From an uncultured archaeon (GTDB taxonomy: Archaea > Iainarchaeota > Iainarchaeia > Iainarchaeales > JAAZKV01), in NCBI GenBank assembly GCA_964551375.1, contig CAZKBG010000002.1, positions 45,558-77,557 on the forward strand: a DNA stretch of 32,000 nt. The letters are read 5' to 3'. Each line of letters begins with the position of its first letter. The first letter of the stretch is position 1. Positions 580 to 32,000 of the stretch are shown in pieces. The notes below the pieces were generated by a model, which did no database searches, was not told where the DNA came from, and saw only the letters and a list, made by a program, of their open reading frames with translations. The position numbers and the translations under genes were made by a program.

Positions 580-1257
580 ATGGTTTTTTTAGATAAGTTT
601 GACAAGTTGCTTTTATTATTTCTAGTTTTTGTGGTAGGAATATTTTTTGCCACGGCGGTAGATATCGACCCAAACATTCCAAGCCATCAATTCTCGCAGA
701 TTGCGGTTGGAGTGGAGAGAGTGGTGAATGACAATAATATTTTGTTAGCAAAATTCGGGGGAACAGGCGTAGCAACATGCCCTGACGGAACTGTTTTGAT
801 TTGGAATAATGTTTCTGGAACTTGGATTTGCGGAAGCGGAGTTCCAGGACCGCAAGGTCCTGCAGGCGTTCAAGGTCCGCAAGGACCAGTTGGTGCGACA
901 GGCGCAACAGGCCCTACAGGATATGCTGGAGCTACTGGTCCTCCTGGTCCGCAAGGAGCTCAAGGCCCTACTGGACCAATTGGTCCAAACGGCGCTACTG
1001 GCCCTGCCGGTCCAACAGGCGCGACAGGAGCACGGGGACCAACAGGAGCTACTGGCCCTGCCGGTCCAATGGGTTCGCCAACTTTTTGCTATTATGAAGG
1101 AGTAGCGTGGGGAATTGGGATGTCTTGCTTTGCGGGAAATCAATCTCCGGCTGCAACAACATCTTATGGAAATCTTATCCAATGTACAACAGGCGGATGG
1201 ACAAGCGGCTCAAGGGTATACGGTCCCGGAGGATACACAGCATATCCAATATGCTGA
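580..1257 (+). CDS. Membrane-anchored collagen-like repeat protein, paralog 1 (225 aa)
   Basis: ATG start. Four parts: an N-terminal hydrophobic anchor ([21 protein letters not shown]); a conserved ~50-aa head ([50 protein letters not shown]); 27 uninterrupted Gly-X-Y triplets; and a ~58-aa Cys-containing C-terminal domain ending YPIC. Paralogous to 1306-1995 and 2090-2782. Confidence 0.85.
838..1080 (+). repeat. Collagen-like Gly-X-Y coding repeat (27 triplets), locally GC-rich
   Basis: The tract [81 protein letters not shown] has Gly at every third residue without interruption. It contains a perfect 22-nt direct repeat (994-1015 and 1048-1069). Confidence 0.9.
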
Positions 1258-1274
1258 TATTAAAATTAAAAATT

Positions 1275-1290: not shown

Positions 1291-1305
1291 GTGTTGGTTA
1301 TTTTT

Positions 1306-1995
1306 ATGGCAATGTTTGGAAATTTTAGCAAAATCGTTCTGATTTTTTTTGTGCTTGTGCTAAGCGTAGTATTTGTCGTTTCGACTGATGTGGTTATATC
1401 AAAACCTTATCATCAGTTTTCTGCAATAGCTGTCGGGATTGAAAAAGTTGCAGACAACAGCAATATACTTTTGGCAAAGTTTGGAGGAACAGGGCTGGTT
1501 AATTGCCCTGACAAAAATGTTTTGGTTTGGAATAATGTTTCAGGCACTTGGATTTGCGGAAATCCTCCTGCAGGAGTGCAGGGGCCTATGGGTCCGCAGG
1601 GGCCAGCGGGCATAGCAGGTCCGCAAGGACCAGTTGGCGCGACAGGCGCTACTGGAGCTAACGGCGCAACAGGTCCTCCAGGCGCCACAGGAGCAAGAGG
1701 ACCAACAGGTCCTGCAAATACCACTACTGGTCCACAAGGGCCAAAGGGATCTACTGGTGCAACAGGCGCTGCAGGTCCTGCTGGTGCAACAGGTCCGCAA
1801 GGCCCGGCGTTAGTAAGAGTAACATGCACTTACAATGGAAGACTTTACAGTCCAGGAGCAAAATGTTTTACAGGAAGCTGTCCTATTGCTACTACAAGCT
1901 CGGGACAATTAATTACCTGCAACTCCAACGGGACTTGGAGTTCGCCGACAACAGTATACGGCTGGGGAAATTCATGCCAGTATTCAATATGTTAA
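1306..1995 (+). CDS. Membrane-anchored collagen-like repeat protein, paralog 2 (229 aa from ATG 1306; the track ORF starts at GTG 1291)
   Basis: Starting at ATG 1306 gives [14 protein letters not shown]. This aligns residue for residue with [14 protein letters not shown] (paralog 3) and [14 protein letters not shown] (paralog 1). Same head domain ([53 protein letters not shown]). Gly-X-Y tract of 16 + 9 triplets split by NTTT. Six-Cys C-terminal domain ending YSIC. Confidence 0.85.
1573..1809 (+). repeat. Collagen-like Gly-X-Y coding repeat (16 + 9 triplets with one NTTT interruption)
   Basis: [79 protein letters not shown]. Nucleotides 1618-1649 match 874-905 of paralog 1 at 31 of 32 positions. 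Confidence 0.9.
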
Positions 1996-2089: not shown

Positions 2090-2782
2090 ATGATAGGTTT
2101 TGGAAAAATTGATAAGTTGCTTTTAGTTTTTATGATTCTAGCCTTGGGAATATTTTTTGTCATGGCAGTAAATGTAAACACTTCAAAACCTTATCATCAG
2201 TTCATGGCAATTGCATCAGGAACTGAAAGAGTGATTAATGATTTTAATCAGCTGAACGCAAAGTTTGGCGGAACCGGAGTTGCGACATGCACTGATGGAG
2301 CAGTTCTAACATGGAGCAATGCTCAAAATTCATGGATTTGCGGAAGCGCAGCTACTGGAATTATAGGTCCGCAAGGTCCAGCCGGTCCTACTGGTCCTGC
2401 TGGTCCAACAGGCGCTACTGGCGCGCGCGGGGCTACTGGCGCGGCAGGGGCGCAAGGACCTATTGGCGCTACTGGACCAACAGGCTATGCTGGGGCAGCC
2501 GGTCCTACTGGTCCTGCTGGTCCAACTGGAAATACTGGCGCTACTGGCCCCGCTGGCGCTACTGGTCCTGCCGGCCCAGCTGGCCCTGGAGATCCTGGAA
2601 ATGTGTGTTATTATAACGGGCACACAGTTGCTGCTGGAACAACTTGCTTTGTCAGCGGAAGCTGCCCAATTGCATGGACTTCATATGGACAAACAGCAAC
2701 ATGTTATACAGGCGGAAGCTGGGGAAATTTTAGAACAGTAAGCGGAAGCGGCGGCTCAAGCTGCGCATATAATTTCTGCTAA
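2090..2782 (+). CDS. Membrane-anchored collagen-like repeat protein, paralog 3 (230 aa)
   Basis: ATG start. Hydrophobic anchor ([21 protein letters not shown]). Head domain ([53 protein letters not shown]). About 26 Gly-X-Y triplets. Six-Cys C-terminal domain ending YNFC. Confidence 0.85.
2357..2602 (+). repeat. Collagen-like Gly-X-Y coding repeat (~26 triplets)
   Basis: [82 protein letters not shown]. It contains a perfect 30-nt direct repeat at 2380-2409 and 2497-2526, offset 117 nt (39 codons, in frame). Confidence 0.9.
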
Positions 2783-2819: not shown

Positions 2820-5123
2820 TTATTCGTCTTTATCCTTCTTTTCAGGCTTTTCTTTTTGAAGCCTTGGAATCATAGTGGTTGAAATCCAATTCTTCCACTG
2901 CCCAAGAAGCTGGTCATAATTAATTTTGCCGTCCTCTTCAATCATAGTTTCTTTCATCAAAAGAAGCTTGTTGTTGCAAAGACTTGTGTGCTCCGCTTCA
3001 AGAAGACTTTTTAAATTAAGAGAATTTTTCTGCTCAACGAGGAATAGTTTTGCATTCGCCCTCAATCTGATTTCAGCCCAAATATCGCTCACAGTAAGCC
3101 CGCTTGTTTTCTGAATCTTTTGTAATAATTCGCTTTCTTTTAAATTATCTTCCATTAATTCAAGAGAATCTTTTGCGGCGTCAAAACTCATAAGCGCAAG
3201 CAGTCCGCCTTCAACTGAAGGGTCAGTATTCCAGTGCTTTTTAATTTCAGTAATTTCAACAACTCTTCTCTGTCTTCCAAGGCTTCCCTTAAACCTAATG
3301 GGTCTAGCAACAACAATCAAATCAGTCGCCTTAAATGAAGTTGTTGGAACTCCTAAATCGTTAACAACACGGTCCCAAACAGAATAAGCTGAATCAGCGT
3401 GAATTGTTCCAAGAACTACATTTCCCGCAGCTCCAACACGCATTGCTTCATACAAAACTTTTGCTTCCTTTGATCTTACTTCCCCGATAACAAGAGCAGA
3501 ATCACCTAAACGAAGAGCGGTACGAAGAGCTTCTGCAGGGTCAACTTCAGTTTCAGTTTTTGAAACACTAATCGGACTTCTTGTTTTAAGTCTTTGAATG
3601 TTAAATCCAATATCCTTCATATAAGGAACAGGAATTTCAAGAGTGTCTTCCTGAACAATAATTCTTGAGTTCTGAGGAATTTCAAGCATCATTGCCTGAA
3701 GAAGAGAAGTTTTTCCCGAGCCTCTTGAGCCCGCAATAAGAGTAGTCGCCTGCATATCAATAAAGAAGCTAATCATTCCTGCTGCAAGCGGATTAATGTA
3801 ACTCACATCAATAAACTGCTCAAGCGTCCAAGGCGTCATTTTATGCAATCTAAACGCAAAACCATAACTTGAAGGAGTAAGAGGAGGGCCGATTAACGCA
3901 ACTCTTGTTTCAAGGTCCGCCAAATCATAATCAAGAACAGGATGCGCTTCATCAAAAGGCCTTGAAGACATCGCTCTTAATTTTGAAATCAAACTATTTG
4001 CCTCAAATTCAGTGAAAGTAATATTTGTCTGGCACTGTCCGTACTCAGAATGAACAATATAAATTGGGCGCGAGCCAATCGGTGAGTCAATGTAAATATC
4101 GGTAATTCTTCTGTCGTTTAATAAAATTTCTAAAATACCATATCCAACAGTGTATCTTGCAACAACTTTTGAAAGAGAGGACATGTCATCAGGAGTAATT
4201 GCAATTCCGCTCCTTGCTGCAATTTCTTTTATTGTTGATTCGTACAAACGCTCAAAGTATCTTCTTGAAGTCGCAACAGTGCTTAAGGAAGTTCTTCCCG
4301 GCTTGTATGCTGAAACAACTTCCCTTGTTCTGCTCAAAACAAAATACTGGTCAGGCGCAAGCGAATACTCGGGCGGATTTATGTAATAAAGTTTCTCAAC
4401 TTTATTCGGGTCCGCAAAAACCTGAACGCTTGATTCTTTCACAGGATACTCGTCAAGAAGCTCAAAGTTTTCAATCCCTGAAAAAGAAAGTTTTGAGCCG
4501 ATAAAGCTTGGCTTAATATCAGCTTCAAAAAGCGCTTTGTAAATAATGCTTGTTTCAGGAACTTGCTGTAATTCAGTAAGAAGTTTTTTTGCTCTTATTA
4601 CAAGAAGAAGCGCGTCAAATCTGTTTCTTAAATCAACAAGAGTTGCGACATACGGTTCGGTGCACTGGATATACCCTGCTCCTGCCTGCTTTAATTTTTC
4701 TTCCTCTTTTCTTAATTCCTGAATTAAGCTAAGATATGCAAGAAGCGGATCATAATTAATCAAATCGCTTGCAATCCTTACTACCATCTGGTGGCGCTCT
4801 GAAAAAAAAGCCTCGCAGTCCTTTCCTGCCCTTCCAAGATGCCCAAAACTCCAAACACTCTCAACGCTTAATTTCTGCGCGAAGTTAGCCACTTCCATCA
4901 GCATTTTTGTCTGGACATCCTCGTAAACTCTCTCATACTTTTCGCTAAATACAATCTTGTCAGCTTCAACTTCCTGCAAAACTTTTATCACGTGGAAACG
5001 GCAGTGATGGTCTTCCCCGATTGAAGCGCTGTAAATACAGTTTTTACAGTCAAAAATAAGCGCACGCTTGCCGCCAATGTCTTTAACAACAAAGTCTCCA
5101 ACCTTGTATCCGCCAATCTTCAT
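2820..5123 (-). CDS. Type II/IV secretion system / archaeal type IV pilus-archaellum family ATPase (FlaI/PilB/GspE-like), unusually long at 767 aa
   Basis: Walker A GSRGSGKTS (aa 465-473, nt 3705-3731). Asp box RIIVQEDTLEIP. Walker B DSALVIGEVR. His box LGTIHADSA. An upstream N-domain motif RITDIYIDSPIGSRPIYIVHSEYGQCQTNITF is typical of FlaI-type ATPases. GGTGA (complement of 5130-5134) lies 6 nt upstream of the ATG. Confidence 0.9.
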   Translation of the reverse strand: MKIGGYKVGDFVVKDIGGKRALIFDCKNCIYSASIGEDHHCRFHVIKVLQEVEADKIVFSEKYERVYEDVQTKMLMEVANFAQKLSVESVWSFGHLGRAGKDCEAFFSERHQMVVRIASDLINYDPLLAYLSLIQELRKEEEKLKQAGAGYIQCTEPYVATLVDLRNRFDALLLVIRAKKLLTELQQVPETSIIYKALFEADIKPSFIGSKLSFSGIENFELLDEYPVKESSVQVFADPNKVEKLYYINPPEYSLAPDQYFVLSRTREVVSAYKPGRTSLSTVATSRRYFERLYESTIKEIAARSGIAITPDDMSSLSKVVARYTVGYGILEILLNDRRITDIYIDSPIGSRPIYIVHSEYGQCQTNITFTEFEANSLISKLRAMSSRPFDEAHPVLDYDLADLETRVALIGPPLTPSSYGFAFRLHKMTPWTLEQFIDVSYINPLAAGMISFFIDMQATTLIAGSRGSGKTSLLQAMMLEIPQNSRIIVQEDTLEIPVPYMKDIGFNIQRLKTRSPISVSKTETEVDPAEALRTALRLGDSALVIGEVRSKEAKVLYEAMRVGAAGNVVLGTIHADSAYSVWDRVVNDLGVPTTSFKATDLIVVARPIRFKGSLGRQRRVVEITEIKKHWNTDPSVEGGLLALMSFDAAKDSLELMEDNLKESELLQKIQKTSGLTVSDIWAEIRLRANAKLFLVEQKNSLNLKSLLEAEHTSLCNNKLLLMKETMIEEDGKINYDQLLGQWKNWISTTMIPRLQKEKPEKKDKDE

Positions 5124-5276: not shown

Positions 5277-5918
5277 ATGAGCATAAAGAAAAAAACCGCC
5301 AAACTTTCGCAAAAAAAAAGCGGGGCAGGGTTCATTCTTGACTATTTTAAAGAACAGCACAAAAAAATCAGAACCGACAAAAAGAAACAGTTTGTTTTCT
5401 TTGTTTTGGGATTTGTGCTTTCATACCTGATTCTTACAGTTTTAGTGAGCATAGTTCCTGATATTTACTATAAAGAAGCAGTTGGGGGAATGGTTAGAGG
5501 AGCGCTTGGAGCGCAAGGGATAAACACCACTTCAGTTGGCAATGTTGAATGCATGGAATTTTCATGGCTGAGCGACACTGCAAAAGGAAGCTGCTATTCA
5601 TTCACCGCAGAGGGAAAGAATATTGTAATTTCCTGGCTCTGCACGGGGATTTTAGAAATAATAATACTAATATGCGCAATAATTGCAAGCTTTGGAGTAA
5701 AATGGAAAGAAAAAGCTGTCGGGATTATAGCCGCAATAATTCTTGGAATAGTTTTTAACATTTTAAGAATAGGGATAACAATAAATCTCATCTTTTCGCA
5801 GGATGTTGCAACTGTTGAAATAGCCCATGATGCTTTATTTAGAATAATTTTGTTTGTTTACATAGCAGTCGTTTATATTATTTGGTTTTATTGGGCTGCG
5901 AACAAAAGCGAACGATAA
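5277..5918 (+). CDS. Short exosortase/archaeosortase-family membrane protein (213 aa)
   Basis: Polytopic membrane protein. The family signature triad appears in the expected order and context: Cys122 in ISWLCTGILEI (the C-S/T-G motif), Arg164 in FNILRIG (the N-x-x-R motif) and His184 in EIAHDALF. The Cys-Arg spacing is 42 residues, as I recall it for characterised archaeosortase A. Lys-rich cytoplasmic N-terminus. Confidence 0.65.
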   Translation: MSIKKKTAKLSQKKSGAGFILDYFKEQHKKIRTDKKKQFVFFVLGFVLSYLILTVLVSIVPDIYYKEAVGGMVRGALGAQGINTTSVGNVECMEFSWLSDTAKGSCYSFTAEGKNIVISWLCTGILEIIILICAIIASFGVKWKEKAVGIIAAIILGIVFNILRIGITINLIFSQDVATVEIAHDALFRIILFVYIAVVYIIWFYWAANKSER

Positions 5919-6006: not shown

Positions 6007-9000
6007 TTGATTTCAGAAAAGCTTGCGGGGTTTTACACAAAGCTTGAAGACAAATATTTTGATGTGCTTGACGCGCTTGACAAAAAAGGCATACCAGTTT
6101 ATGCTTATTCTGATTTTTTTGAAAATAAAGGAATACCAAGCTTTGTTGTGACAATAGCAATAATAGTCGCAATAATCGCAATTGTAACGCTTGCTCTAAC
6201 TTATCAAGGCGCTGATGTCGGCGAATTAACTTTATCATTAAAAGACAGCGACGGACAAAGCCTAAATGATGTTTCACTTGTAATAAAAGACGCAAAAGGA
6301 GAAGTGCTTTTTGAAGGAAGCGCAAGCGACGGAGAAACGATAAAATTAAACCGTGCGCTCTTTAACGGCGAAGAAATATCAATAACCGCCGAGGTGGAAG
6401 GATACCAGCCAAAAACAATCGCATTCACAGTCGGCGAAGAAAATAATGTTCCCAAATTATCATTTGACCCTTATTTTGAAGGAATTGAAGCTGCAGTAAG
6501 AGTAATTGATTCTGAAGGCTCAACTCCAGTATATGACGCAACAGTGCTTGCAAATTCAAGAGCAAATTTAAGCTACCAGTTTGTTTCAGACCAGAACGGA
6601 ATTTACAAAAAAAGCGGAGTTCCTGCCGGAGTAGATTTACTTCTAAAAATAACAGCAGAAGGATATGACAATTACGAGCAGACAGTTTCATTTAGAGCGG
6701 GCGAAGTAAGAGAAGTAATGCTTACTCCTTCAAATAATGGACTTGCGGCAGAAGTAAATATTGCAATTGATGTCTCAGGACCAGATGGCAAATCAATTGA
6801 CCAGGCAAAAGTAACTGTGTACGACAAAAGAAATTCAACAGTTCTATTTAGCAGCTACACAACAGACGGAACAGTGGTTGCAAAATTACTTTCAGGAGTT
6901 CCGCTAAGAATTGTTGTTGAAAAACAAGGGTACTTAACTTATGATTCTGATGTAGACGGCGGAGGAGTAACTGTACGAACTGACGGATTAAGATTCCCAG
7001 TTAAACTAAGACTTGGGGGGCAGAAATTACACGTAACTGTGCTTGATTCACAGTCAGCATTCGGCGTTGAAGGCGCAACAGTTCAATTGTTTAGAGAAAC
7101 AGGAGAATTAATTTCAAGCCAGGTTTCAAAAGTTTCAGGAGCTGAATTTAGCGGAATTGATTCAAATTTAACAATTTACGTTACAGCATACAGAGACGGA
7201 TACCTTCCCACAAGAGAGAAAGTAAGAGTAAGCATCACTGAAGAAGTAAAAATACTGCTCAATAAAGTAACTTCAAATAATTCAACAAGACTTGACATTT
7301 ACACGCTTGACAAGCTTGGAAAAACAGTTAACGGCGTAAAAATTTTAATAATTGATATTAACGGCTCGGAAAAAGTGCCTTATGGAATTCCAGAAATTGA
7401 AACAAGCGTTGCGGGATACGTTAATGCGACAGTTGCAATCGGAAAAACATACTCTGTAAAAGGATACACTGATGTTCTTGACGGAGCAATTGATGTTGAA
7501 GTAAAACAGGGCGAAATAGAAAAGAAAGTTTACTTAAAAATGCTGAAAAAATCAAACGTTTTAGAAATGAAATTCATTGACGTGTTTGGAAAAAATGTAA
7601 AAGGCAAATCCACAATATCAGGGCTTGACGGGACAATATTATTTGACGGACCGATTTTAGAAGGAAGCATATTCTTTGACGCGCAGCAAAAAGACGTAGT
7701 TGAAGTAATGGTTACAAAAGATGACGGAAATGTATTCACTGAAAATGTCACAGTAAAAGGAAAAGACTATGTTGAAGTAATGGTGTATTCAAAAGACTCC
7801 GCAGCTCTTTCTCCAACAATTGAATTTATTGGAATTGAAGACGAAAGTGGAAACGTAGCTGATGGAATAATTCCAGGCGCATTCTTCTGGGCAAAATTTA
7901 ATGTAACATTCCCAAGGTCAGCAACAAAAGGCGGAGTTCACTTTAGAGTAGGGCAGGACGATGTTGAATTTGTTGAATCAGAAAAATTTGCGTTATATGA
8001 TTTAAGCATGCAAAATGCGACAGTTGATTACTCTTTATCCTATACTCCTTTGCCAGCCCCAGGAAACGAAATAGTTGACAGGGCGAATAAAGGAACTCAA
8101 GGAAGCAAAAACAAGTGGATTGAAGGAGTTGTAAGCCAGCCCCAAGGAACATACACTGCAAAAATTAAAGTAAGAGCTGAAGACTTTTTAGCGGGAAAAG
8201 CAGAGTTAAAATTCAGAGCATGGGCAATAGTTGGCTCGGATTATTACAGAATGCCCCAAGACGCAGATCTTTTATCAAAAGGATACAGCGATAAAAAAGC
8301 GGCATTATACGCGCTGACAAGCACTCAATCAGTTACAATTTACGAATCCCTTCCTGAATGCGCGGATAATTTATGCATGGCAGTTAATTTTGTTGACGAA
8401 GACGAACAATTCCTAAATGAAAAAGGATTTGAAGCATGGAAAGGAAAACAATACGCAATTGAAATTGAATTATCAGCAAAAGAACAGGAATATGCGCAAG
8501 TTACAGTAACAACTGATGCCAATATTGATTTTAGCTCCTCGCAGACAACCAATTTTGGATTTGTAAAAAGAGGAGAGCAGATTGGGCAAGTAAAGAAAAC
8601 AGCAGCAGCTGCAGTGACAATAGCTAAAGGCGGAAAACAGAAAGTAAGATTCTACTTCACAGCAAACAAAGTAGGCGCGGCTTCAATTAATGTAAGCGCA
8701 ATAGGAAAATCAACAGTAGTAAAAGATGTTTTATTTAACGTAGTGGAAGAAAAATCACTTCTTATAGAATTATCAGAAAATCAGGTAATGGCAGGAAGAA
8801 ACTTTACAGTAAGAGTGACTGACTCGGGACTTAAAGGAGTAGAAAATGCTCTTGTAAAAATAATTGACAGCGAAGGAAAAACCGCAAAAAGCATTCTTGG
8901 CGACGGAACTGACGGAAAAGGAAAAAACGGATACTATAGAATACAAAATAATTTAGGAGTGGGCCTTTACACTGTTGAAGTATCACTAACAGGATATGCT

Positions 9001-12000
9001 ACACAAGCGCTTCCTTTGATGATTGCGACTCAAAATGTGCTTGCATTCAAAGAAGAACTTGAAGCAAAACTTCCAGTAAATCAAAAAAGCCTTGTAATAA
9101 CAGAAGCGCTTACAAACGAATCAGAATTTACAGTTCAAAATATTACAATCCAGACTGAATCAGAAAATGAAAAAGAAAAAACTGTTTCAAAAACAAGCAC
9201 AAGCACTACTGCAACTGACAGTTTCAAAGTAGTTGCTACCACAACCCCTGCATTAAGCAAAGGACAAAAACAGCCAGTGCAGATTACAGTAAGCTACCTT
9301 GGAGATTTAACAGAAAGCGCTGATGAAACAACCACAATTTCAATTTCAGGACTTGTTGAAGGAAAATTCCTCACAAAAACAACAGCAAAACTCCACATGA
9401 TGTATAATAAAAAACTTGACCCGACATGCCTTGAAGTAAAACCATCAAACGCGGTTCTAAATCTGCTTGGAAGCCCAGGCTCAACTGATACTACAACACT
9501 TGAAATTACAAATAACTGCGAAACAGCTCTTTACATTGCAAAAAGAATAAGAGAAACAACAACAGGCGCGCTAAGAGGAATGCAGCTTGACGCTGATAAT
9601 ATAGACCTTCAGCCAGGCGAAACAAAGAACCTTACAATTAGCGCGGTAAACCAGATAGCAAGAGGAGCCTCAAGAGAGCAATCCTTCGGATTTGAACTTG
9701 TTTATGACTCAAACGCAATTAAGAAAACAATTCCAGTAACAGTAAAAACAATTAATCCGGTATTTGCGCTTAATTACCCTGCGCAAATAACTCTATACTT
9801 AGCGCAGACAAATGTGAATGAAAAAGCAACTGCTGCACAGCCGATATTTATCTCAAATAGGTCATCCTTCCCAATTGATAATATACAATTAGCGCAAGGA
9901 ACTGATTCACTATCTCAGGCAAATGTAAAACTCACAATCGAACCAACTGCAACTGTAAGCCTCCTTCCTGGACAGGCAATATCCCCTCCAAAAATATTAT
10001 TCGCTTCAGCAAGCTCAAGAATAACCGAGCCGGTAAAAGCAAGAATTGACATAAGCGGAACAATGGGAAACCTTGAAAACAGGTCATGGCAGAACGACAA
10101 TTACGGCTATTCAAATAATTACACAAATTCTTCAAGATCAATAAATACTTACTCGCAGGCAAACTCAAGAAATTACTATAATAATTACTACGGAAGCACA
10201 GGGCAAATGCTTGGCTCAATAGATGTAACAGTATTCTATTCAGGATACAACTGCTTAACAGGACACGTTACTGAATCATTCTTCTTCCCAAGCGAAGGCG
10301 GGGAAATAGGAAAATTAATTAAAATAGTAAACGGATGCGCTGAACCAGTTACAGTAGTGGGAGTGTCGCAGGCATCTCAGGCAAAAAGCCAGACAATCTT
10401 TGGAATGCCAGCAGTAATGACTTCAATTATGATGGGAGTGCCAAGAGTAAGCGTAGCTCCAGGACAAATGATACAAGTTCCAATGACAATTAGAACAGCA
10501 ATACCAAATATAAAAAGACAAAATTACCAAGTAGTGCTTGAAGCAATTTCAGAAGTAAGCCAAACTCCAATTACTTCAAAACCATTCCCAGTAAATATTT
10601 CATCAGGAAACAGCACAAGAGAAGAGCATGTTAAAGGCGCTCCTGTAAAAGTAAAAGTATGCGGCTCGCAGACAGAAACAGAAGTAGTAATGCCAAAAAT
10701 AGTTGAAAACGCAAACTGCGCAGAAGGATACTGCGATGCAAAAAACGCTGTGAAATACATTGCCGCAAAAGTTGAAAAAGTAATACAAAACGCAAGATCC
10801 CAAGGATACTCATACAAAAACACAATTGAAAATGAAGTAATACCGTGCCAAGTAACAGGAATATGCACATTCGAAGAACTGAATATGGTTCCTGAAGAAT
10901 TTGACTTATACTTACAGAACGACAGAATCACTCCAGAACTGCTTGAAGCTGAATTAAACAAAGTTCAATACGAAGGCGCAAACAATACTCCATACAGAGA
11001 AACTGTTGGAACAACAAACGGATTAGTAGTAGAGCCAAAGTATGTTGAATTATCAGTAATCAGAGGGTTCATACTAACAGGATATTATAGAAGAATATTC
11101 CTTGACCCAGCATTTACTGGATGCGGATATTATAGAATTGCAATAAACGGAGCATTCCCAGCAGGACCTCAAGGGCTTGACTCAATGTCCCCAGTACTTT
11201 CAATAAATGCAGTTCCTCAAAATTCAAGAAGCTCCCTATTAACAAACGAGTGCGTTTCATCAATACAAAATATTGAAAACTTCAATCCAATAGACACAGG
11301 ACTTGAGCCTGGAAGAGAATTCGGCACATGGATGACAACAATAACCACTGATTCACAGCTAAAAGACCTCGCAACACAAATATCAAAATCAAGATACAAA
11401 TCAGAAAAGAGAGTGGCATCGGGAATCGGAAACAAAGTTGAATTAAAAGTTGGAGCATTAACTGGCATACTTGCGCAGGCATGCATAAGCGGAAATGACA
11501 GAAGAACAATTTCAGTTACAATTGCGGACACAATGCTAAGAACAAATGACGCTGCGACAAAAACTGCGTTTAACACAGCAGTTGTAAAAATGATTTCAGA
11601 CGCATTGAACGGCTCATTTGGGGACAACTGCCTTGTGAGAAGCGGAGATTCATACTCATGCGTTAACTTAACTGACTTGCCAAGCTCAATAGGCAAAAGA
11701 CAGCTTGCTCTCCTTAACACTTCTATTAACTTTATTTCCCAAAACGGGGGGTGCACAACTGGAACAGTGTACTCAAATGTTCCTGAATCGCTCAACTTTG
11801 AAGTGACTCCAAATTCAGTTAAAAAGGAATTTATTGGAATAAGAAGAATTTCAATAAGCGCTGATGATGCTTTAAACGGTCCGATTGCCACAATTTCAAA
11901 AACACCAACTGGAAATACTACAGTTGGAACAACTACAAATGCTTCCTCAACTTCATCAGCACAGCCTGCTGTTTCAACTCAACCACCTACTCCAACTCAG

Positions 12001-24397: not shown

Positions 24398-25468
24398 GTG
24401 GATAATAGAGTGCTGACATTTGTACTAATAAGCATAATTGCATTCTTGTCAGGCTTTGCCGCTTCATACCTCTTTCCAATTCAAACTCCTTTTGTTGATG
24501 TTCCATTCAGCGTTCTTGCAATAGGATTAATCCTTGGAGGGGCCGCTTTTTTTGGATATCTTGGCTTTATTCCAGCACTTCTTTTGGGACTCCAGCTGGG
24601 CGCGGAAAAAAACGCGGCAGTATTCATTTACATTGCGCCTGTAATACTTGCAATTTATGCGGGAACTTATATTGGAGTTTTAATAAACAAAGATTTTGAA
24701 AGAAAAGAAATATTTGCAAAAAAAGCAAAAAATATTATTGTAATAGTGGCAATCGCCCTTGTAATATCATTCGCGGTTGAAATGGCGGTGCCGTACACTG
24801 TAGAGTACTGGCCGAAGGATTATCTTGGGATGAGTGTGGGCGGAGGATATATGTCATATGATTCCGATTTGACAGGGGAAAATATTATTTTAAGGGGAGA
24901 TTCATTAACAATTCCAATTGAATTAAAACAAATAGTTGTTGGAAAGAACAATGCTTCCGTGTTTAACACTTCAACGAATGCGATTTTAAAAATAAAAGAC
25001 GCTGATGAAGGCACGCCAGTTTATGGGGCTGAAGTTACTGCCACAAGCCAGAGCGGAAATGAACATGAATTTATTGAAACTTCAAGCGGAATGTACAAAA
25101 AAGATCAGTTCCCATTCGGAGAACAAGTAACATTAATTGTAAAATCAAAAGGATACGAAGAGTACAATAAAAAAGTTACATTTAACCGCGATATTATAAA
25201 TGAAATCTCGCTTACTCCAGAACCTGTGGGCGAGGAAGCAGAATCAAGCGTTACAATAAGGGTATTTGGAAGCGATGGAAAGACAATAAACCAGGCAAAA
25301 GTAACTGTTTATAATAAAGAAACATCCGCAACACTCCAAATAGGATACACTCAAAACGGACAAATTACGCTTAAAGCAATGACTGGGACAAGACTGAGAA
25401 TAGTTGTTGAAAAAGGAAGCACAGCCGCAGGGCTTATTGGAAAACTTGCGAGCCTTAAAAGAAGATAA
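24398..25468 (+). CDS. Polytopic membrane protein (about 5 TM helices) with C-terminal extracellular beta-sandwich domains (356 aa)
   Basis: GTG start with a strong AGGTGA ribosome binding site. Hydrophobic helices in aa 1-135 include VLTFVLISIIAFLSGFAASYLF, VLAIGLILGGAAFFGYLGFIPALLLGLQLG, VFIYIAPVILAIYAGTYIGVLI and IIVIVAIALVISFAVEMAV. The C-terminal part has carboxypeptidase-regulatory-like modules. Residues 282-341 are about 50% identical, by hand alignment, to residues 249-308 of giant protein 1. Confidence 0.75.
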   Translation: MDNRVLTFVLISIIAFLSGFAASYLFPIQTPFVDVPFSVLAIGLILGGAAFFGYLGFIPALLLGLQLGAEKNAAVFIYIAPVILAIYAGTYIGVLINKDFERKEIFAKKAKNIIVIVAIALVISFAVEMAVPYTVEYWPKDYLGMSVGGGYMSYDSDLTGENIILRGDSLTIPIELKQIVVGKNNASVFNTSTNAILKIKDADEGTPVYGAEVTATSQSGNEHEFIETSSGMYKKDQFPFGEQVTLIVKSKGYEEYNKKVTFNRDIINEISLTPEPVGEEAESSVTIRVFGSDGKTINQAKVTVYNKETSATLQIGYTQNGQITLKAMTGTRLRIVVEKGSTAAGLIGKLASLKRR

Positions 25469-25643: not shown

Positions 25644-28600
25644 ATGGGCATTGGGGAATCGCTAAAAGGAATATACTATTCTGGCGAAGAAAAGTGGTAT
25701 GCTTTCTGGGATAAAGTGGACGCACACATTCCTGTTTACAAAGTAATTGACCCAATTGATTCAGTAATACCGACATTTGCGCTGTTTTTGATTATTATCT
25801 TTTTAATTTTATTATTCGCAGGATATGCGCTTCTTGGCGGAATAGCTCCTGCAACCGCGACTCTAAAACTAAGCGTTGTTGACAGCGACGGAATGGGAGT
25901 AAGCGGAGCAACAGTGACTGTTGAAGGAGTTGATGGCGAATTCTACTCAAACGACTTCGGATTAATTGAAGACTTAATTGTTCCGTTTAATTCAACGCTT
26001 GAAGTAAATGCGGAGAAAGGCGAGAGCAAAACAACAATTCCAATTACAATTGACGAATTTGAAAAAATTGCAGAAGTAGTGCTTCCAGTTGAAAGAATAA
26101 GCTTTGAGCAGAAAACAATAAGATTCCAGAGCGAAGACGGCGCACTAATCCAAAGCGAATTAAGATTACATTACACATGCTCATCAGGAGTGGCTGCTCC
26201 TGAAGATGTTACAATTTACACAGGCAGCGCGAACTTAGCACAGCCTGCAAATTGCGGAACTCTTGAAGTAGAAGTAACTTCATCAAAATACGAAAGAGCA
26301 AGATTTTCAGTAAGCGGACCATCAGGAGTATTTACACTAAAATTACTTGCGCCGGTTGAAAAAGGACGAGCTACAGTAAACCTAAAATACGAATCAAGAT
26401 TAATCACAGAACAAGTTACAGTTCAGGCATTTAGGGCAGATAATGCATTCCTTCCAGTAAACAGCGCAACAAGCGTAAACGGACAAGTTCAATTTGAACT
26501 TCCACTTGGGGATTACAAATTCAAATCACTAATGCAAAGCGGGTACAAGCAGAAAGAATCATCAGTAGTTTCAATCACAAAAGCAAATTCAAACCCTGTT
26601 ATTGACTTAGATTTGCAGAAAGAAATAATCGGAGTAATTGTAGTTCAGGCAAAAGAAAATGGAGCTGCCTTAAGCGGAGTTCATATGAGCCTGACAAAAA
26701 AACTTCTAACCAGACAAGAGCCTGTAATTGACAGAGACACAAACGAAGGCGGATATGTTCAATTTGAAATTGCGGAAGACGCAAATTACACAGTAACAGC
26801 TACAAAAGATAATTACTGCGAAGTATCAGTTGCAGTATCAATAGGAGACTCAAGAGTAATCTCAATGAAGCAGAATGACTCAACATGCGGATACAAACTA
26901 ATTGCAAGAGTAATAGACCAGGACAATAAGCCGGTAGCTCACGCAAAAGCGGCAATATTCATTGAAACAGCAGAAGATATTTACAAAATGCCAAGAGCAG
27001 AACAAGTAACAGGATACAATGGGGACGCAAACTGGAACCCTGTAAGAAAAACAAACAGCGACGAGAAATTCAAAGTATTCGCATATAAAGCATCATACTC
27101 CGGATGGAGTGAAGCAAGAGTATTTGACTCGCTATCCTCAAGCACTCCATTTGTTGTAAAACTTGAAATCCCGATGGGAACAGTAAAAGTAATAGCAAAA
27201 GACAGAGACGCTAATCCATTGCAGTTTGCAGAAGTTCAGTTATTTGATGAATACGACGGAACAGCAGTAAGCGGCAGAAAATTAATTGAAAACGCTGACG
27301 GCTCAATTGAATTCAACTTAAAAGCTGACAAGAGAGTTTATGCAGTAGTAAAGAAAGAAGGATACGAATCATACACTACACTTCCAACAATGATGGTTGC
27401 AGGCGGAACAATTACATTTGACGTTGAACTATTCAAGCCACCTGTTCAGGAAATCTTTGTTAGATCGCTTGGATTCTTCAAAAACGGAACACCAGTTCTA
27501 AAAGTAGAGCCAAGCCAGGAATACGACGCATTGTTTGAATTAACTGCCCCTTCAACAAAAACATACTCAGAACTTGGATTCTTTGTAAGAATGGGCGCAG
27601 ATAATATGACTAAAACTGAGCTTGATAAAATATTTATCAAAGATGTAATGGCTTCAGGAGTAAAATCAATAGTAACAGGAGCGACTTACAATAAGCCAAT
27701 GGGATACTATAACACTGACTCAAAATACACTAACCTTGAAGAAAGCAAGTGGGCAGAAATAAAATGGCCAATGAACGGATATGTTCCTGGAAAAATCATA
27801 GTAGGAGTAAAAGTAAAAATCAGGCCAACTGCGCAGGCTGAAGAAAGACTTGAACTTGGATACAGAGCATGGGGCAAAACAACAAGCGGAGTATACGAAA
27901 GAGACTTAATTGACGACGAACTTGGAACAAGCCAGAGCTCAACAACAAAACAAGAACTTTACGCTTCAACAAAGCCAGATTACATTACAGTTGGAATGGA
28001 AACACTATGCGATACTCCAGAAAGCGGAAAATCATTCTGTATAACAGCAACTTACACTGATCCAGACGGATTCACAAAAAGCTTCAATGACTCATTTGAC
28101 ACTAAGAACAATACTCCTTACAATGTTTCAATCAAAATCATGAACAACTCAACAGTTGGATTTGATGACGCAAAAATAATGGTTGAAAACCCTGAAGAAA
28201 ATTTATACATGGGCACAATGACAGCAGTAACTCCAAGATTCTCTCCAAGCGAGATAAACGTAAACGGATACGCTACTGACTGGATTGACATGCCAAGATA
28301 TGTAAAGAACTCATCAATTGAAATCCAATCAATGCAATTAACTCCGCAAAAAACAGGGACAGGCACATTGCTTGTAAAAATACGCGAAGGCGCATCAATG
28401 ATTTATGAAAAAGCATTTACAGTAAATATTGCAAGCGACAAGAAATTAACAGTGCGATTCATGAAAGGCGGAGTATTTGGAGACGAAATGCCTAAATTAG
28501 TATCAGGAAAAACTGAACTACTAACAGTTAAAGCATTAAACACAGTAAGCGGATTAGAAGTACAAGACGCAGTAGTAAAATTATTCGACAGATTTGGAAC

Positions 28601-31600
28601 AAAACTATTTGAAGCAACTACAAACAAGCTTGGAGTAGCAACAATACAAATACCAGCATCACTTCCAGGCGAAAGATTAGTTCTTTCAATTGAAAAATCA
28701 GAATACGAAACAGTGAGAAAAGATATTGTAATTGCAGAAGATGTAGTAAGCGTAGACCCAACTTCACTAAACTTCACAGTTAACCCGCAGTCAAAACTAA
28801 CAGATATGAAAACAGTGAAAATCACAAACGAAACAGCAATTGACCTTTATATAAAAAGCATAACACTAACAGGAAAACTAAAGGGAGTTCTTGACGAAGC
28901 CTCAATTTCAGCATGGTTTGAGAACTTTAAAGGAAAGAAAATAAAATCACAAGACTATGAAGAAGTAGTATTCAAAGTAGCAAGCGCAGCAGTAGTTCCA
29001 ACAGCAGAAGACCTTGAAGGAACATTTAACATTACACTAATATCACAGGGAAAAGAATGGGTAAAAGAAATCCCTGCAAAAATCAGAGTAGGACTTGGAA
29101 AAGATGTTGACAACCAATCATGCCTTGAAGTAACAAAAACAATGTGGGACACAACAACAAGAGGAGCGCAGGTTGAAGCATCATTTGAACTAAGAAACAA
29201 CTGCACAGTAAACGGAGCGCCAGTAATTTTGAAAAACATCGGCGCAACAGTATCACAATCAACAACAGTAACAGGCACATTTAATGCGCAGTCAAAGAAC
29301 ATACAAGTAGAACTTGGAAGCGCATTTGCAAGAATATTTAAAACATCAATGGACAAGGGGGAGAAAGTTCCAGTAACAATAAAATTCACCCCAATGCCAG
29401 GCTCAGCAGGAATAGCAACAGGCTCAATAATATTTGAAGCGCTGAATAATACTGACTCAAAAGCGCAGAAACTAACTGCTGAAATGAAATACAATATAAT
29501 TTACGAAAACTTGCAGGACTGCGTAGTGCTTGGAGCAGACGAATTAACAATTGAAGAAGAAGGAAGCGGAACATTTACAGTAAACAATAACTGCAAATCA
29601 AAAGTAGATGTTATACTAAGACCACAAGACTTGCAGGGCTCAATAAATAACACTGACTTTAAATTAAACGCAGGAGAAAACAAAGAAGTAACTGTAAAAT
29701 CATACAAAGGGCAAATAGCAGGAGCATACAATGTAGTTCTTGAAGCAAGAAGCACAGGAGCATCACTTGAACCGGTTGCAAATATTAAAGTAATAATAGA
29801 GCCAAAATCAAGCTGCTTTAAACTTACAAGATACGTTTATGATATATTTGACTACGAAGACAGCGTAAATCCATTTGACGGAATAGACAGAGGATACTTA
29901 ATCAACAACTGCGTTACAAAGAATGTAACAGCAAAAGTAACAGGAACTATTCCTTACGACTCATCAGCAATCCTAAAAACAATGCTATGGGGCGGACTAG
30001 TAGGCGGAGTAACAGCATACTTTAAGACAGGAAAATTTTGGCCAGATTCATGGTTCAACAAAAAGGACCCAAAAGTATCCTCAAATATACAAACAGGATA
30101 CACTGATGTAGCGCACGCTCAAAGATCTGAACTTACAAGAGTAAGCACAGAAATGCAAACAGCAAAAGAAACAAATTACGGACAAATAGACGCTAAACTA
30201 AAGGCGCTTAAGAAACAAGCCGATGACACTAATGCAAAAGTAGTGAATAGATATAACTTAAATCGCGCAGAATGCGAAAAAATCTCAGCTAACCCTGCTG
30301 ATGCTTCAAGAATTGCATGCTTAACAAAAGCAACTTCAATAAAAGCAGACGCTCAAGCAATAATTACAAAACAATACGCTGCCGCTGAAACTGATATTAA
30401 TGCGTTAAGAGAAAAATTAAAGAAAGCTGAAGCAGAGTTCTCAACTCAATTAAAAGCTTCAGGCGAAAAGATGGATTCATACACAGAACAGCAGAGATCA
30501 AACGCTTCATTCCAAGTAGGACAAGGAACTATAAACAATGAGAAAGCAAACAGAGAAATGGACGCAACTCTAAGAGCAAATATTTCAAACTTAAGAAACG
30601 AAATGAACGCAAAGATTGACGCATGGAATGGATACAGAAGCGACTTCATGAACACACTTTACAAGAAATATGAAAAACTTGACTTAAGCGATGTAGAGAA
30701 ACAGAAGAATAACAAAATAACAGCTGATGCGGCTAAACCTGAAAAGTACTCATTAACAACTGCAGCGCTTGACGCAGTAACAGTTGACAAAGTAGAAGAG
30801 AAAGAGTTCTCAACAGCTCCAGCAATTACTGCTATTGACACAACAAAATCAGGACCAAGCCAGATAGCATCAAATGGACTTGCATCAACTAATGCTACAA
30901 CTGTAACTGCGACTGATGTAATAACATCATCAGATGGATATACTTTGATTAAAGATGATGGAACAAATCCAAGCGCGGCTCCAGCTGATTATCAGCCTAT
31001 GAACAGTTTGACAAGCAATATTGGAAGATATTACAGAAATCCTGAAAGTTTAATAGTCCGCCCAACTGGTAATGATTCTTACACAGTAACAAGAAATGAC
31101 GGGCAGTTAATTGGGACTTGGAGTTATAATAATTCAGTTTGGACTGAAACAATTGATTCAAGCACAAATTACTATGATAGTTCATTTAATCACTTAAAGA
31201 AAAATGCTAAAGTTGACGGCTTTTTCCTGCTTGCAACAAGCGGAACAGGAGCTTCAACAGGAAGCACTTCATCTTCTGGCTCAAACTCAAACCAGTCAAG
31301 CGGAATGAACGCAATATTAAACGGAGTAATTGGATACGGAGCAGGCTCGGTAATGCCTAACGGACTTGGCGGAGCACTTGCAGGCGCATTAACTACTGGA
31401 TTTATGCAGTGGATGCAGGCGCAAGACACTACAGTAAATTACAAAGACACTTTCGAAATGAACTGGATTGAATTTGTAAGTGCAACACTGGACAGCCCAA
31501 GCGGAGTAAAAATGGATGTGGGCGAAGCAATGTATGATTATGAAACTTACTACGGAACAACAGTAACTGGAAGCACAGTTTCAGAAACTACAAACGCAAC

Positions 31601-32000
31601 ATACTCAGGAAACATAAAATACAACGCAGAAGCATTGAATGCTACAGTTGGAACAGTGGAAGAAAGAGAATTGACATTCACAAACAGCGGAAAACTAATC
31701 CAGGAAAAGAAATGGACTCCGTTTGTAGGATTAATGACAGTAAAAGGACAAGAAAAAATATATGATACTACTTACAAATATGATGAGATTAAGGAAAAAG
31801 CAATAGAAAGAGGAGACTACGAAGAAGAAGACGGGTTCTTTGACAACTTCTTCTCAGGACCAAACAATGTAGGCGAAATAGCGCAAATAGCCGACTCTGA
31901 TATTGATGTTAACTCGGTAAGATCATACGAAAAGAAATTCCACTTGCTGTTTGAAGCATGGCAGTACGTTGATTGCGGACCAAGAACATACGCTTGCCCA
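25644..32000 (+). CDS. Giant surface protein 3, 3'-truncated by the window edge (at least 2119 codons); absent from the supplied ORF track
   Basis: My own translation of the frame with positions divisible by 3. An in-frame TAG sits at 25578-25580, and the first ATG is at 25644. The ORF track lists no + strand ORF in this interval, and the many short antisense ORFs mirror those inside giants 1 and 2, which is the basis for calling the frame open to base 32000; I hand-translated only 25644 to about 26460, 29880-31440 and the last 30 nt, so the intervening roughly 3.4 kb (about 26460-29880) and 31440-31970 are inferred rather than directly checked. The N-terminus MGIGESLKGIYYSGEEKWYAFWDKVDAHIPVYKVIDPIDSVIPTF plus a TM helix (FALFLIIIFLILLFAGYALLGG) is followed by TATLKLSVVDSDGMGVSGATVTVEG..., paralogous to giants 1 and 2. 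Confidence 0.85.
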   Translation, partial: MGIGESLKGIYYSGEEKWYAFWDKVDAHIPVYKVIDPIDSVIPTFALFLIIIFLILLFAGYALLGGIAPATATLKLSVVDSDGMGVSGATVTVEGVDGEFYSNDFGLIEDLIVPFNSTLEVNAEKGESKTTIPITIDEFEKIAEVVLPVERISFEQKTIRFQSEDGALIQSELRLHYTCSSGVAAPEDVTIYTGSANLAQPANCGTLEVEVTSSKYERARFSVSGPSGVFTLKLLAPVEKGRATVNLKYESRLITEQVTVQAFRADNAFLPVNSATSVNGQVQFELPLGDYKFKSLMQSGYKQKESSVVSITKANSNPVIDLDLQKEIIGVIVVQAKENGAALSGVHMSLTKKLLTRQEPVIDRDTNEGGYVQFEIAEDANYTVTATKDNYCEVSVAVSIGDSRVISMKQNDSTCGYKLIARVIDQDNKPVAHAKAAIFIETAEDIYKMPRAEQVTGYNGDANWNPVRKTNSDEKFKVFAYKASYSGWSEARVFDSLSSSTPFVVKLEIPMGTVKVIAKDRDANPLQFAEVQLFDEYDGTAVSGRKLIENADGSIEFNLKADKRVYAVVKKEGYESYTTLPTMMVAGGTITFDVELFKPPVQEIFVRSLGFFKNGTPVLKVEPSQEYDALFELTAPSTKTYSELGFFVRMGADNMTKTELDKIFIKDVMASGVKSIVTGATYNKPMGYYNTDSKYTNLEESKWAEIKWPMNGYVPGKIIVGVKVKIRPTAQAEERLELGYRAWGKTTSGVYERDLIDDELGTSQSSTTKQELYASTKPDYITVGMETLCDTPESGKSFCITATYTDPDGFTKSFNDSFDTKNNTPYNVSIKIMNNSTVGFDDAKIMVENPEENLYMGTMTAVTPRFSPSEINVNGYATDWIDMPRYVKNSSIEIQSMQLTPQKTGTGTLLVKIREGASMIYEKAFTVNIASDKKLTVRFMKGGVFGDEMPKLVSGKTELLTVKALNTVSGLEVQDAVVKLFDRFGTKLFEATTNKLGVATIQIPASLPGERLVLSIEKSEYETVRKDIVIAEDVVSVDPTSLNFTVNPQSKLTDMKTVKITNETAIDLYIKSITLTGKLKGVLDEASISAWFENFKGKKIKSQDYEEVVFKVASAAVVPTAEDLEGTFNITLISQGKEWVKEIPAKIRVGLGKDVDNQSCLEVTKTMWDTTTRGAQVEASFELRNNCTVNGAPVILKNIGATVSQSTTVTGTFNAQSKNIQVELGSAFARIFKTSMDKGEKVPVTIKFTPMPGSAGIATGSIIFEALNNTDSKAQKLTAEMKYNIIYENLQDCVVLGADELTIEEEGSGTFTVNNNCKSKVDVILRPQDLQGSINNTDFKLNAGENKEVTVKSYKGQIAGAYNVVLEARSTGASLEPVANIKVIIEPKSSCFKLTRYVYDIFDYEDSVNPFDGIDRGYLINNCVTKNVTAKVTGTIPYDSSAILKTMLWGGLVGGVTAYFKTGKFWPDSWFNKKDPKVSSNIQTGYTDVAHAQRSELTRVSTEMQTAKETNYGQIDAKLKALKKQADDTNAKVVNRYNLNRAECEKISANPADASRIACLTKATSIKADAQAIITKQYAAAETDINALREKLKKAEAEFSTQLKASGEKMDSYTEQQRSNASFQVGQGTINNEKANREMDATLRANISNLRNEMNAKIDAWNGYRSDFMNTLYKKYEKLDLSDVEKQKNNKITADAAKPEKYSLTTAALDAVTVDKVEEKEFSTAPAITAIDTTKSGPSQIASNGLASTNATTVTATDVITSSDGYTLIKDDGTNPSAAPADYQPMNSLTSNIGRYYRNPESLIVRPTGNDSYTVTRNDGQLIGTWSYNNSVWTETIDSSTNYYDSSFNHLKKNAKVDGFFLLATSGTGASTGSTSSSGSNSNQSSGMNAILNGVIGYGAGSVMPNGLGGALAGALTTGFMQWMQAQDTTVNYKDTFEMNWIEFVSATLDSPSGVKMDVGEAMYDYETYYGTTVTGSTVSETTNATYSGNIKYNAEALNATVGTVEERELTFTNSGKLIQEKKWTPFVGLMTVKGQEKIYDTTYKYDEIKEKAIERGDYEEEDGFFDNFFSGPNNVGEIAQIADSDIDVNSVRSYEKKFHLLFEAWQYVDCGPRTYACP

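Follow-up and report, generated by a model that had tools for sequence, protein, structure and literature searches.

The 32,000-nt stretch of contig CAZKBG010000002.1 analyzed here (the window) carries ten genes, g1–g10, at positions 580–32000. We put the probability at roughly 0.55 that it is one half of a type IV pilus (type IV filament, TFF) surface locus conserved across Iainarchaeota, in which a pilus and giant adhesins would together form an attachment organ. The giants are the products of g6, g8, and g10, here called giants A, B, and C, and each begins with the same short N-terminal module (the N-module). As judged from sequence comparisons, three N-module giants, a large prepilin, and a minimal exosortase-family enzyme are associated with a pilus machine in a conserved and apparently undescribed way. 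A first-pass annotation, made from the window's letters without database searches, had proposed eleven envelope or secreted genes forming one new surface apparatus. Every gene class it named is present where it was placed; the genes number ten rather than eleven.

Gene g4 (2820..5123, minus strand) encodes a 767-amino acid (aa) secretion ATPase of the type IV pilus. It scores 67.3 bits against Pfam PF00437 (T2SSE; cut-off 24.9) and has a Walker A motif (GSRGSGKTS, nt 3705–3731) and a Walker B motif (IIVQED, nt 3642–3662), both invariant in 13 orthologs. Profile score and motifs together place it among T2SSE-type (PilB/FlaI/CpaF-type) ATPases, as the first-pass annotation had recognized. The closest solved relative is Archaeoglobus fulgidus GspE (2OAP). 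A conserved N-terminal extension of ~290 aa carries the motif C-x2-C-x11-C-x2-H (residues 26–44, nt 4992–5048, minus strand), a likely zinc-binding site from its sequence; across the same 13 orthologs, Cys41 and His44 are invariant and Cys26 and Cys29 nearly so. Identification as the archaellum motor FlaI was rejected. The score against the NCBIfam FlaI equivalog NF058587 is 147.5 bits, far under its cut-off of 550, and the neighboring genes in related loci encode pilins and a TadC-like platform, not archaellins or FlaH/FlaJ. The NCBIfam model of the bindosome ATPase, BasE, gave 68.6 bits, below its cut-off of 1000.

About 200 related loci were fetched in all (given L numbers below), and open reading frames (ORFs) were called and clustered in 80 species-level loci around ATPase orthologs, which are 58–84% identical to g4. 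In 44 of the 61 loci with enough sequence, the same strand carries a platform gene no more than 3 kb downstream of the ATPase. Its product is a polytopic, TadC-like protein of ~780 aa that matches T2SSF weakly (E 2e-5; 24.8 bits, cut-off 25.2). Next come six or seven proteins of 150–260 aa; their N-termini read KGQ or KGF and continue into a hydrophobic helix, and they are therefore assigned to the class III pilins by sequence. The operon closes with a zinc-ribbon protein, a ~180-aa membrane protein, and one larger protein. No class III peptidase was found in any of the fetched stretches. Gene context thus identifies g4 as the organism's ordinary pilus ATPase. It had first been taken for the engine of a new machine, a role that does not fit orthologs heading a conventional platform and class III pilin operon. 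Grouping of the ATPase with a known pilus operon having its own partners had been named beforehand as evidence against the new apparatus; for the ATPase this is what was found, with the partners located elsewhere in the lineage.

Three further observations concern the ATPase family. About one in ten pilus ATPase orthologs is ~1,270–1,290 aa long and contains intein/homing-endonuclease domains (PF14528, PF14890), as in homologs P0014, P0037, P0043, P0044, P0050, P0056, P0069, P0078, P0083, and P0088 and in L109, L110, L114, and L117; g4 has no intein. An Iainarchaeota-type ATPase (66% identical) occurs on contigs filed in GenBank as Chloroflexota and Falkowbacteria metagenome-assembled genomes (MAGs; L026, L027, and L028), labels that probably reflect binning contamination. 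In L036 and L114 the pilus ATPase gene is immediately preceded by a gene for a second, distant secretion ATPase (484–574 aa; 28% identity to g4 in L114), accompanied by small genes of its own; this may be a second filament system.

In the window and its closest relatives (ATPase 79–84% identical), the ATPase is followed by the aCPSF1 gene and not by the platform gene. Relatives with this arrangement include L005/L023, L006–L009, L012, and L166–L167. Platform and prepilin peptidase genes are absent from the window, as first reported, and also from the 10 kb upstream of it. A platform-profile scan of metagenome contigs recovered platform and pilin operons without an upstream ATPase (e.g., L090, L093, L098, L099, and L126). 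Contig Ga0247841_10000080 holds a giant cluster at 38–60 kb and an ATPase-less platform/pilin operon at 131–150 kb, so that on this one related contig the two halves are about 90 kb apart. Contig Ga0172369_10000048 likewise holds a g7 homolog and an ATPase-less platform/pilin operon. Because related contigs carry both the giant cluster or g7 homolog and the ATPase-less operon, the other half of the pilus machine is very likely present elsewhere in the window's lineage. In L086 (partial ATPase, 81% identical) the platform gene still lies just downstream of the ATPase, with only an opposite-strand 134-aa ORF between them. For a relative with a 985-kb contig, the 80 best loci of the metagenome scan did not include the platform; the scan was keyed to two peptide patterns, so this absence is uninformative. 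Proteins of ~600–820 aa with the N-terminus AQGTIEYLV... are encoded beside the relocated operons (L090 4863–7325 and 16229–18067; L099 5524–7863 and 123–2372). Their classical archaeal class III N-terminus marks them as further large pilin-like proteins of the same organisms.

The conserved core runs divergently from the ATPase gene and begins with the exosortase-like gene, followed by giant A, the large prepilin, giant B, a small membrane protein with four transmembrane (TM) helices, and giant C. The exosortase-like gene is divergent from the ATPase gene and within 5 kb of it in 42 of 53 species-level loci. In 28 of 44 loci an N-module giant begins no more than 1.5 kb beyond the exosortase-like gene, on its downstream side, and in several others it is slightly further off; about 16 loci have the exosortase-like gene without an adjacent N-module giant. 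The full order from giant A through g7, giant B, and the small TM protein to giant C recurs in four more long loci, L197 (the 985-kb contig), L199, L200, and L201, whose ATPases, where known, are 75–83% identical to that of the window. In these loci giant A has 2827–3068 aa, the g7-like protein 483–534 aa, giant B 2342–2503 aa, the membrane protein 157–166 aa, and giant C 2721–2892 aa. All three N-module giants are seen in L197, L200, and L201, and L199 begins inside giant A. L200 lies downstream of the exosortase-like gene, which among the four long loci is seen in L197 and L201 only.

Rearranged loci keep parts of this core together. In L052 and L064 the platform and two pilins are followed by a pair made up of the exosortase-like gene and a giant; in L081 this position holds the exosortase-like gene without an N-module giant, and in L034 the giant alone has moved there. 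Distant genomes (ATPase 61–66% identical; L030, L041, L054, and L055) keep the core order for at least three genes, which encode the exosortase-like protein, one giant, and a g7-like protein. Overall, the neighborhood of ATPase, archaeosortase-like gene, giants, and class III-signal gene is kept through rearrangements down to about 58% ATPase identity. This part of the association first noticed is not confined to one genome. Window proteins are 45–52% identical to their orthologs, and the paralogous giants are 23–25% identical to one another. In view of this difference the giant triplet is old and fixed, consisting of three ancient paralogs rather than recent copies. The concern that the giants might be generic hypervariable surface genes, scattered independently of the ATPase, does not hold against this fixed order and these identities.

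Giant A (g6, 6007..14883, plus strand) has 2958 aa, with its N-module at nt 6007–6216. Giant B (g8, 16632..24212, plus strand) has 2526 aa from a GTG start and about 2523 aa from ATG, and matches Pfam CarboxypepD_reg at E 2e-26. Giant C (g10, 25644..32000, plus strand) runs past the window end, with more than 2118 aa inside it, and gene content beyond 32000 is inferred from orthologous loci. All three carry the N-module, which confirms the paralogy and common N-terminal anchor first described for them. The N-module spans ~70 aa. It consists of a leader of ~42 aa, the motif [IV]Px[FL], and an uncharged TM helix of ~20 residues, and the first β-sandwich follows directly. The leader is rich in acidic and aromatic residues, with the consensus Y-x-K-x-E-D-K-[FWY]-[YF] ... 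D ... KG[ILV]PVY .... In the window the motif and its preceding residues read KG-IPSF in giant A, KG-IPSFP in giant B, and SV-IPTF in giant C, each followed by the TM helix.

A profile built from the three window N-modules matched 1,051 representative clusters in a database of 1.84 billion proteins at E ≤ 1e-3, and 514 under the stricter limit of E ≤ 1e-10. Of the 150 best matches listed, all except one have the N-module beginning in the first ~50 residues. At least 1,300 aa are present in 86 of these 150 proteins, and most of the shorter ones are probably fragments. Named N-module proteins come from Diapherotrites or Iainarchaeum, with a few labeled Micrarchaeota, and are annotated as hypothetical or as 'carboxypeptidase-like regulatory domain'. 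The residues preceding the motif are KG in giant A and in the window's giant B (IPSF), KN in giant B orthologs, and [SNE][VI] in giant C. The KG-IPSF of giants A and B resembles a class III cleavage site; giant C has SV there. Among 134 N-modules with a median leader of 42 aa, Gly occupies position -1 in 72, and Lys or Arg occupies position -2 in 94. A canonical class III signal for all giants was rejected, with the -1 Gly missing in 46% of modules. By sequence, the invariant element of the N-module is [IV]Px[FL] plus the helix, and not a peptidase site. Known CTERM sorting domains in NCBIfam (PEF-, Loki-, PGF-, IPTL-CTERM, and others) gave no significant match on the motif-plus-TM segments; the best, non-significant, matches were Loki-CTERM at E 0.47 and PEF-CTERM at E 1.9 in one of six segments.

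CarboxypepD_reg-type β-sandwich domains lie close to the N-terminus of the giants, and the rest of their length matches no family. Their cysteines are even in number (24, 28, and 16) and closely paired, and sequons are slightly above expectation. Identity to orthologs is 0.45–0.66 over the first ~1,700–1,900 residues and 0.19–0.30 in the last third. Giant A orthologs of 2827–3068 aa occupy the same position in L197, L200, and L201, and giant B orthologs (2342–2503 aa) are 47–49% identical. From the paired cysteines, surface-type domains, sequons, and variable distal third, we infer that the N-terminal helix anchors each giant, whose body would lie outside the cell and consist of a conserved stalk and a variable tip. 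This topology would place the leader and [IV]Px[FL] on the cytoplasmic side. The opposite orientation, with cytoplasmic giants, an external N-terminus, and the motif at the enzyme's active face, was rejected on the paired cysteines, surface-type domains, and variable distal third.

Gene g5 (5277..5918, plus strand) encodes a minimal exosortase/archaeosortase-family protein of 213 aa. It scores 36.4 bits against the family signature TIGR04178 (cut-off 23), in agreement with the archaeosortase-like enzyme first proposed, and its homologs are labeled 'exosortase/archaeosortase family protein' in their sources. It falls under the cut-off of every named subfamily (XrtH, 33.4 bits against 86; XrtX, 31.3 against 170; ArtD, 16.3 against 125), and its best subfamily-level match is exosortase H. 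Cys122 (in LCTG), Asn161, Arg164, and His184 are invariant in 56 homologs from fetched loci and 34 database homologs. This pattern agrees with that of archaeosortase ArtA, in which Cys and Arg are conserved together with His or a second Arg (PMC6098224). An AlphaFold2 (AF2) model of g5, with a predicted local distance difference test score (pLDDT) of 81, shows a small β-sheet and five helices, four of them long and one amphipathic. Over the family, Lys plus Arg average 8.6 in the N-terminal tail and 3.2 in the C-terminal tail; a Lys cluster occupies residues 143–146, and the loop at 80–119 is acidic. By the positive-inside rule, this charge distribution predicts that Cys, Arg, and His are at the outer membrane face, as in canonical members. 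The evidence that links g5 to the pilus operon and to the giants is synteny.

Gene g7 (15009..16496, plus strand) encodes a large prepilin-type protein of 488–495 aa; the likely true start is 15030, giving 488 aa. Its basic leader is followed by RG|FNMFSAIVAV, within the family pattern [KR]G|FN[ML]F[ST]A[IL]VA. The short basic leader, the [KR]G at -2/-1, and the hydrophobic helix agree with a class III signal, and cleavage is predicted. The class III pilin-type signal first noted for this protein is kept in full-length family members; many database entries start at an internal Met past the cleavage site. All 67 homologs come from Diapherotrites and are annotated as 'hypothetical', and g7 has no family match. 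Its AF2 model (pLDDT 87.5; predicted TM-score 0.78) has a 73-residue N-terminal helix (residues 8–80) followed by an α/β body with ten conserved Cys. Foldseek against the PDB returned no match to this fold (E > 0.1). In long loci the g7-like gene always lies between giants A and B. The product of g7 is best read, from its sequence, as a large minor or tip pilin.

Gene g9 (24398..25468, plus strand, 356 aa) is a local version of a conserved four-TM protein of ~160 aa with a GLQLGAEKN motif. Its orthologs of 157–166 aa lie between giants B and C in L197 and L199–L201. The window copy has an insert of ~190 residues, ahead of the conserved C-terminal tail ...KLASLKRR, that is a copy of giant A residues 162–306 (41% identical) and matches CarboxypepD_reg at E 5.5e-8. 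The polytopic protein with the giants' β-sandwich domain, noted in the first reading, is thus accounted for.

On the reading we prefer, that of a split pilus and adhesin locus, the giants would be Sec-inserted fibrils anchored with the N-terminus inside and the C-terminus outside, with a conserved membrane-proximal stalk. Their fast-evolving distal third would contact surfaces or partner cells. The cytoplasmic leader and [IV]Px[FL] may be read by parts of the pilus machine, for example the N-terminal domain of the ATPase or the platform. The machine would build a filament of small pilins, with g7 as a minor or tip subunit. The exosortase-like enzyme, with its outward Cys/Arg/His site, may mature or anchor the giants or some other product of the locus.

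Several findings weigh against this reading. The platform and pilins of the window's clade were seen on related contigs, and the platform, pilins, and peptidase of the window's own genome were not among the sequences recovered. Canonical prepilin-peptidase cleavage cannot explain the N-module family, given the frequency of the -1 Gly. The [IV]Px[FL] motif lies on the membrane face opposite the predicted active site of g5. A C-terminal sorting signal of motif, TM helix, and basic residues was found in none of the ten window proteins, none of which ends in a TM helix. About a third of exosortase-like loci have no adjacent N-module giant, including the complete AR10 genome (L058). Finally, the coupling of the parts is drawn from gene neighborhood within one phylum, where shared ancestry inflates conservation.

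The enzyme and the giants could be coupled more directly, with the N-module (Pro motif plus TM helix) recognized and then cut or transferred as an N-terminal sorting signal by the adjacent exosortase-family enzyme. We regard this as doubtful. In 28 of 44 loci a giant comes directly after the exosortase-like gene, and the two relocate together; the enzyme keeps its Cys, Arg, and His and has exosortase H as its best subfamily-level match. The invariant [IV]Px[FL] abuts the TM helix and resembles the PEP, PGF, PEF, and IPTL motifs of known sorting signals, and the faint Loki-CTERM/PEF-CTERM alignment begins exactly at IPSF. ArtA can process a signal that is not C-terminal (PMC6098224), which also counts in favor. 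However, the CTERM matches are not significant (E 0.47 and 1.9), no basic cluster follows the TM helix, and about 16 loci have the enzyme but no adjacent giant. Moreover, the catalytic residues are predicted at the outer face, from the charge distribution over 56 homologs and the AF2 model, whereas with the giant bodies outside the motif sits at the inner face; the motif is therefore on the wrong face for a simple scissile site. The broader proposal that the N-module is a new class of N-terminal sorting signal, read by the minimal exosortase-family enzyme, by the pilus ATPase/platform, or by both, is likewise tentative. A machine resembling the Sulfolobus bindosome would instead treat the giants and g7 as class III substrates, cut at [KR]G|IP by a PibD-type peptidase, with the ATPase and platform assembling the giants and the exosortase-like enzyme serving an unrelated role. 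In the bindosome, large non-pilin proteins are able to use class III signals. Giant A has KG|IPSF and giant B K[GN]|IP[ST]FP directly before the uncharged helix, g7 and the small pilins have canonical [KR]G| sites, and the giants are linked to the pilus operon. These points are outweighed by the residue counts at -1 and -2 (72 and 94 of 134) and the [SNE][VI] of giant C. In addition, the leader of about 42 aa is acidic and itself conserved, in contrast to short basic class III leaders; the β-sandwich begins at once past the TM helix, with no long amphipathic pilin helix; and the BasE model gives 69 bits against a cut-off of 1000. Assembly of this kind is considered unlikely.

Two further accounts loosen or tighten the association. 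In the looser one the island is uncoupled: the giants would be Sec-inserted envelope or sheath proteins, similar to an S-layer, the enzyme would serve proteins with C-terminal signals elsewhere, and the synteny would be inherited or reflect co-regulation. All related loci belong to one phylum, so the synteny may be partly historical; no classical sorting signal occurs in the window, the operon has split in the window's lineage without loss of ATPase or giants, and giant sizes are conserved, as in structural envelope proteins. Yet the exosortase-like gene and giant stay with the pilus operon through independent rearrangements (L034, L052, and L064) while neighbors turn over, a prepilin-type g7 is embedded between giants, and the conserved cytoplasmic leader implies a cytoplasmic or membrane partner. 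An uncoupled island appears improbable. The tighter account is that of the first-pass annotation, in which all ten genes, with the collagen-like products of g1–g3 as 'stalks', form one new apparatus with a single ATPase and no ordinary pilus. The genes are indeed co-located, and the collagen-like proteins have signal sequences and Cys-rich ends like surface proteins. Their genes, however, occur in no relative, including close ones (ATPase 83% identical), and the ATPase orthologs head a normal platform-pilin operon, which makes this account very hard to sustain. The part of that proposal which survives is the conserved neighborhood of ATPase, exosortase-like gene, giants, and g7; the collagen-like genes and the stand-alone new machine do not.

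Genes g1 (580..1257, 225 aa, Pfam Collagen E 2e-15), g2 (1291..1995, 234 aa, E 1e-10), and g3 (2090..2782, 230 aa, E 1e-12) are on the plus strand, and g2 and g3 are paralogs of g1. They are collagen-like, as first described, scoring 41–57 bits against Pfam PF01391 (cut-off 27.2) with tandem 9/27-nt periodicity. Each product has an N-terminal hydrophobic Sec-type signal or anchor, a common N-domain, Gly-X-Y repeats, and a Cys-rich C-domain; the N-domain of g2 is 50–60% identical to those of g1 and g3. They are probably secreted trimeric surface proteins. Matches to the N- and C-domains were found only in the window's own sample and in none of the ~200 fetched loci. The interval from the ATPase 3′ end to aCPSF1 (window 442–2819) is a variable spot, in which relatives hold none, one, or two unrelated small ORFs. 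Examples are L006, L007, L009, L012, and L166, of which L007 holds a 658-aa ORF. Sequence comparison thus assigns g1–g3 to a lineage-specific filling of this spot, outside the conserved core and not part of a conserved apparatus. A phage tail-fiber reading of g1–g3 was rejected as unsupported: tblastn against phage genomes returned nothing, and IMG/VR and PHROG matches span the Gly-X-Y repeat only. A perfect hairpin, GCAGCA-AAAAA-TGCTGC, lies at 475–499 just past the aCPSF1 stop codon, flanked by T and A runs. From this position ahead of the collagen-like genes it may serve as a terminator or a regulatory element.

The 3′ end of the aCPSF1-type β-CASP gene occupies 58–441 (Pfam RMMBL and Beta-Casp matches). 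No tRNA genes or Rfam families were detected in scans of the whole window, and no further credible ORF was found there beyond the ten genes. The source is a DPANN archaeon (Iainarchaeota/Diapherotrites); where named, the ATPase homologs come from Diapherotrites/Iainarchaeota MAGs. The 10 kb of contig upstream of the window, from the same sample, encodes housekeeping genes including a wyosine radical-SAM enzyme, HerA, the proteasome, and aCPSF1. On account of these genes and the Iainarchaeota homologs, the window is assigned to the chromosome of a DPANN archaeon. Another very large gene (L001 1–941, about 10 kb upstream of the window; product 1,743 aa), with no Pfam match on record, lies upstream of the housekeeping block.

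Archaeal TFF loci were surveyed by Makarova et al. in 2016 (PMC4858521), and a recent preprint (10.64898/2026.04.22.720090) describes a 'system 2' in which several pilins and large adhesin-like proteins accompany an N-terminally extended ATPase and just one platform gene. The Iainarchaeota locus resembles system 2 in its N-terminally extended ATPase, one platform gene, several class III pilins, membrane accessory proteins, and large adhesin-like proteins, and g4 is assigned to it by resemblance only, not by a tree or arCOG placement. It differs in being split in one lineage. Large adhesin-like proteins in archaeal pilus loci are thus already known; what is new is the exosortase link and the N-module. 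A sortase-family gene in such pilus loci, DPANN Iainarchaeota loci, and giants with a dedicated N-terminal module all go unmentioned in both the 2016 survey and the 2026 preprint.

In comparison with the ArtA/PGF-CTERM and exosortase/PEP-CTERM systems, g5 belongs to the same family, has the conserved Cys/Arg/His, and adjoins very large surface proteins with a Pro motif abutting a TM helix. It is much smaller, however (213 aa, with four predicted TM helices and a small β-sheet loop), and is under all named subfamily cut-offs. Its neighbors have no C-terminal tripartite signal, and their motif-plus-TM segment is N-terminal, without a basic tail. Known exosortase and archaeosortase settings involve C-terminal signals in Euryarchaeota and bacteria, and to our knowledge linkage to a pilus operon is not a known feature of the family. 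The bindosome (Bas) shares a PilB/PilC-type pair linked to large non-pilin surface proteins with N-terminal class III-like signals. Its cargo consists of sugar-binding proteins, whereas here it would be proteins of 2,500–3,000 aa with β-sandwich repeats, a long and conserved leader, and often no -1 Gly. Like modular or large minor pilins and PilY1-type tip adhesins (Streptococcus sanguinis PilB, PMC8179133), g7 combines a prepilin N-terminus, a long helix, and a large globular part. Unlike the bacterial modular pilins, it has no sequence or fold match to a solved pilin or adhesin, and its family is restricted to Iainarchaeota. The giants of nanohaloarchaea (PMC10266531) are similar by description, being very large secreted or anchored proteins of a ~1-Mb DPANN genome with a presumed contact role. 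Those described here differ: they occur as three in a fixed arrangement, share an N-terminal module of their own, and have a conserved link to a pilus operon.

Genomes of Iainarchaeota and other DPANN archaea are about 1 Mb, and roughly 25–30 kb are spent here on three giants fixed beside a pilus ATPase. If the link is only historical synteny, the supposed new machine is corrected to an ordinary pilus ATPase of a split operon, and the collagen-like genes are removed from the system. A functional link would give a handle on how these uncultivated cells attach to surfaces or partners, in the form of a sorting tag present in about 1,050 clusters together with candidates for the enzyme and the motor. 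The exosortase/archaeosortase family would in that case also extend to DPANN archaea and to a pilus context, possibly with N-terminal signals. There is a modest chance that the locus holds a new sorting mechanism. Should the N-module prove to be the signal, this would be the first exosortase-type system acting on N-terminal signals and physically coupled to a type IV pilus machine, and its job would be the display of 2,500–3,000-aa adhesins on a DPANN archaeon.

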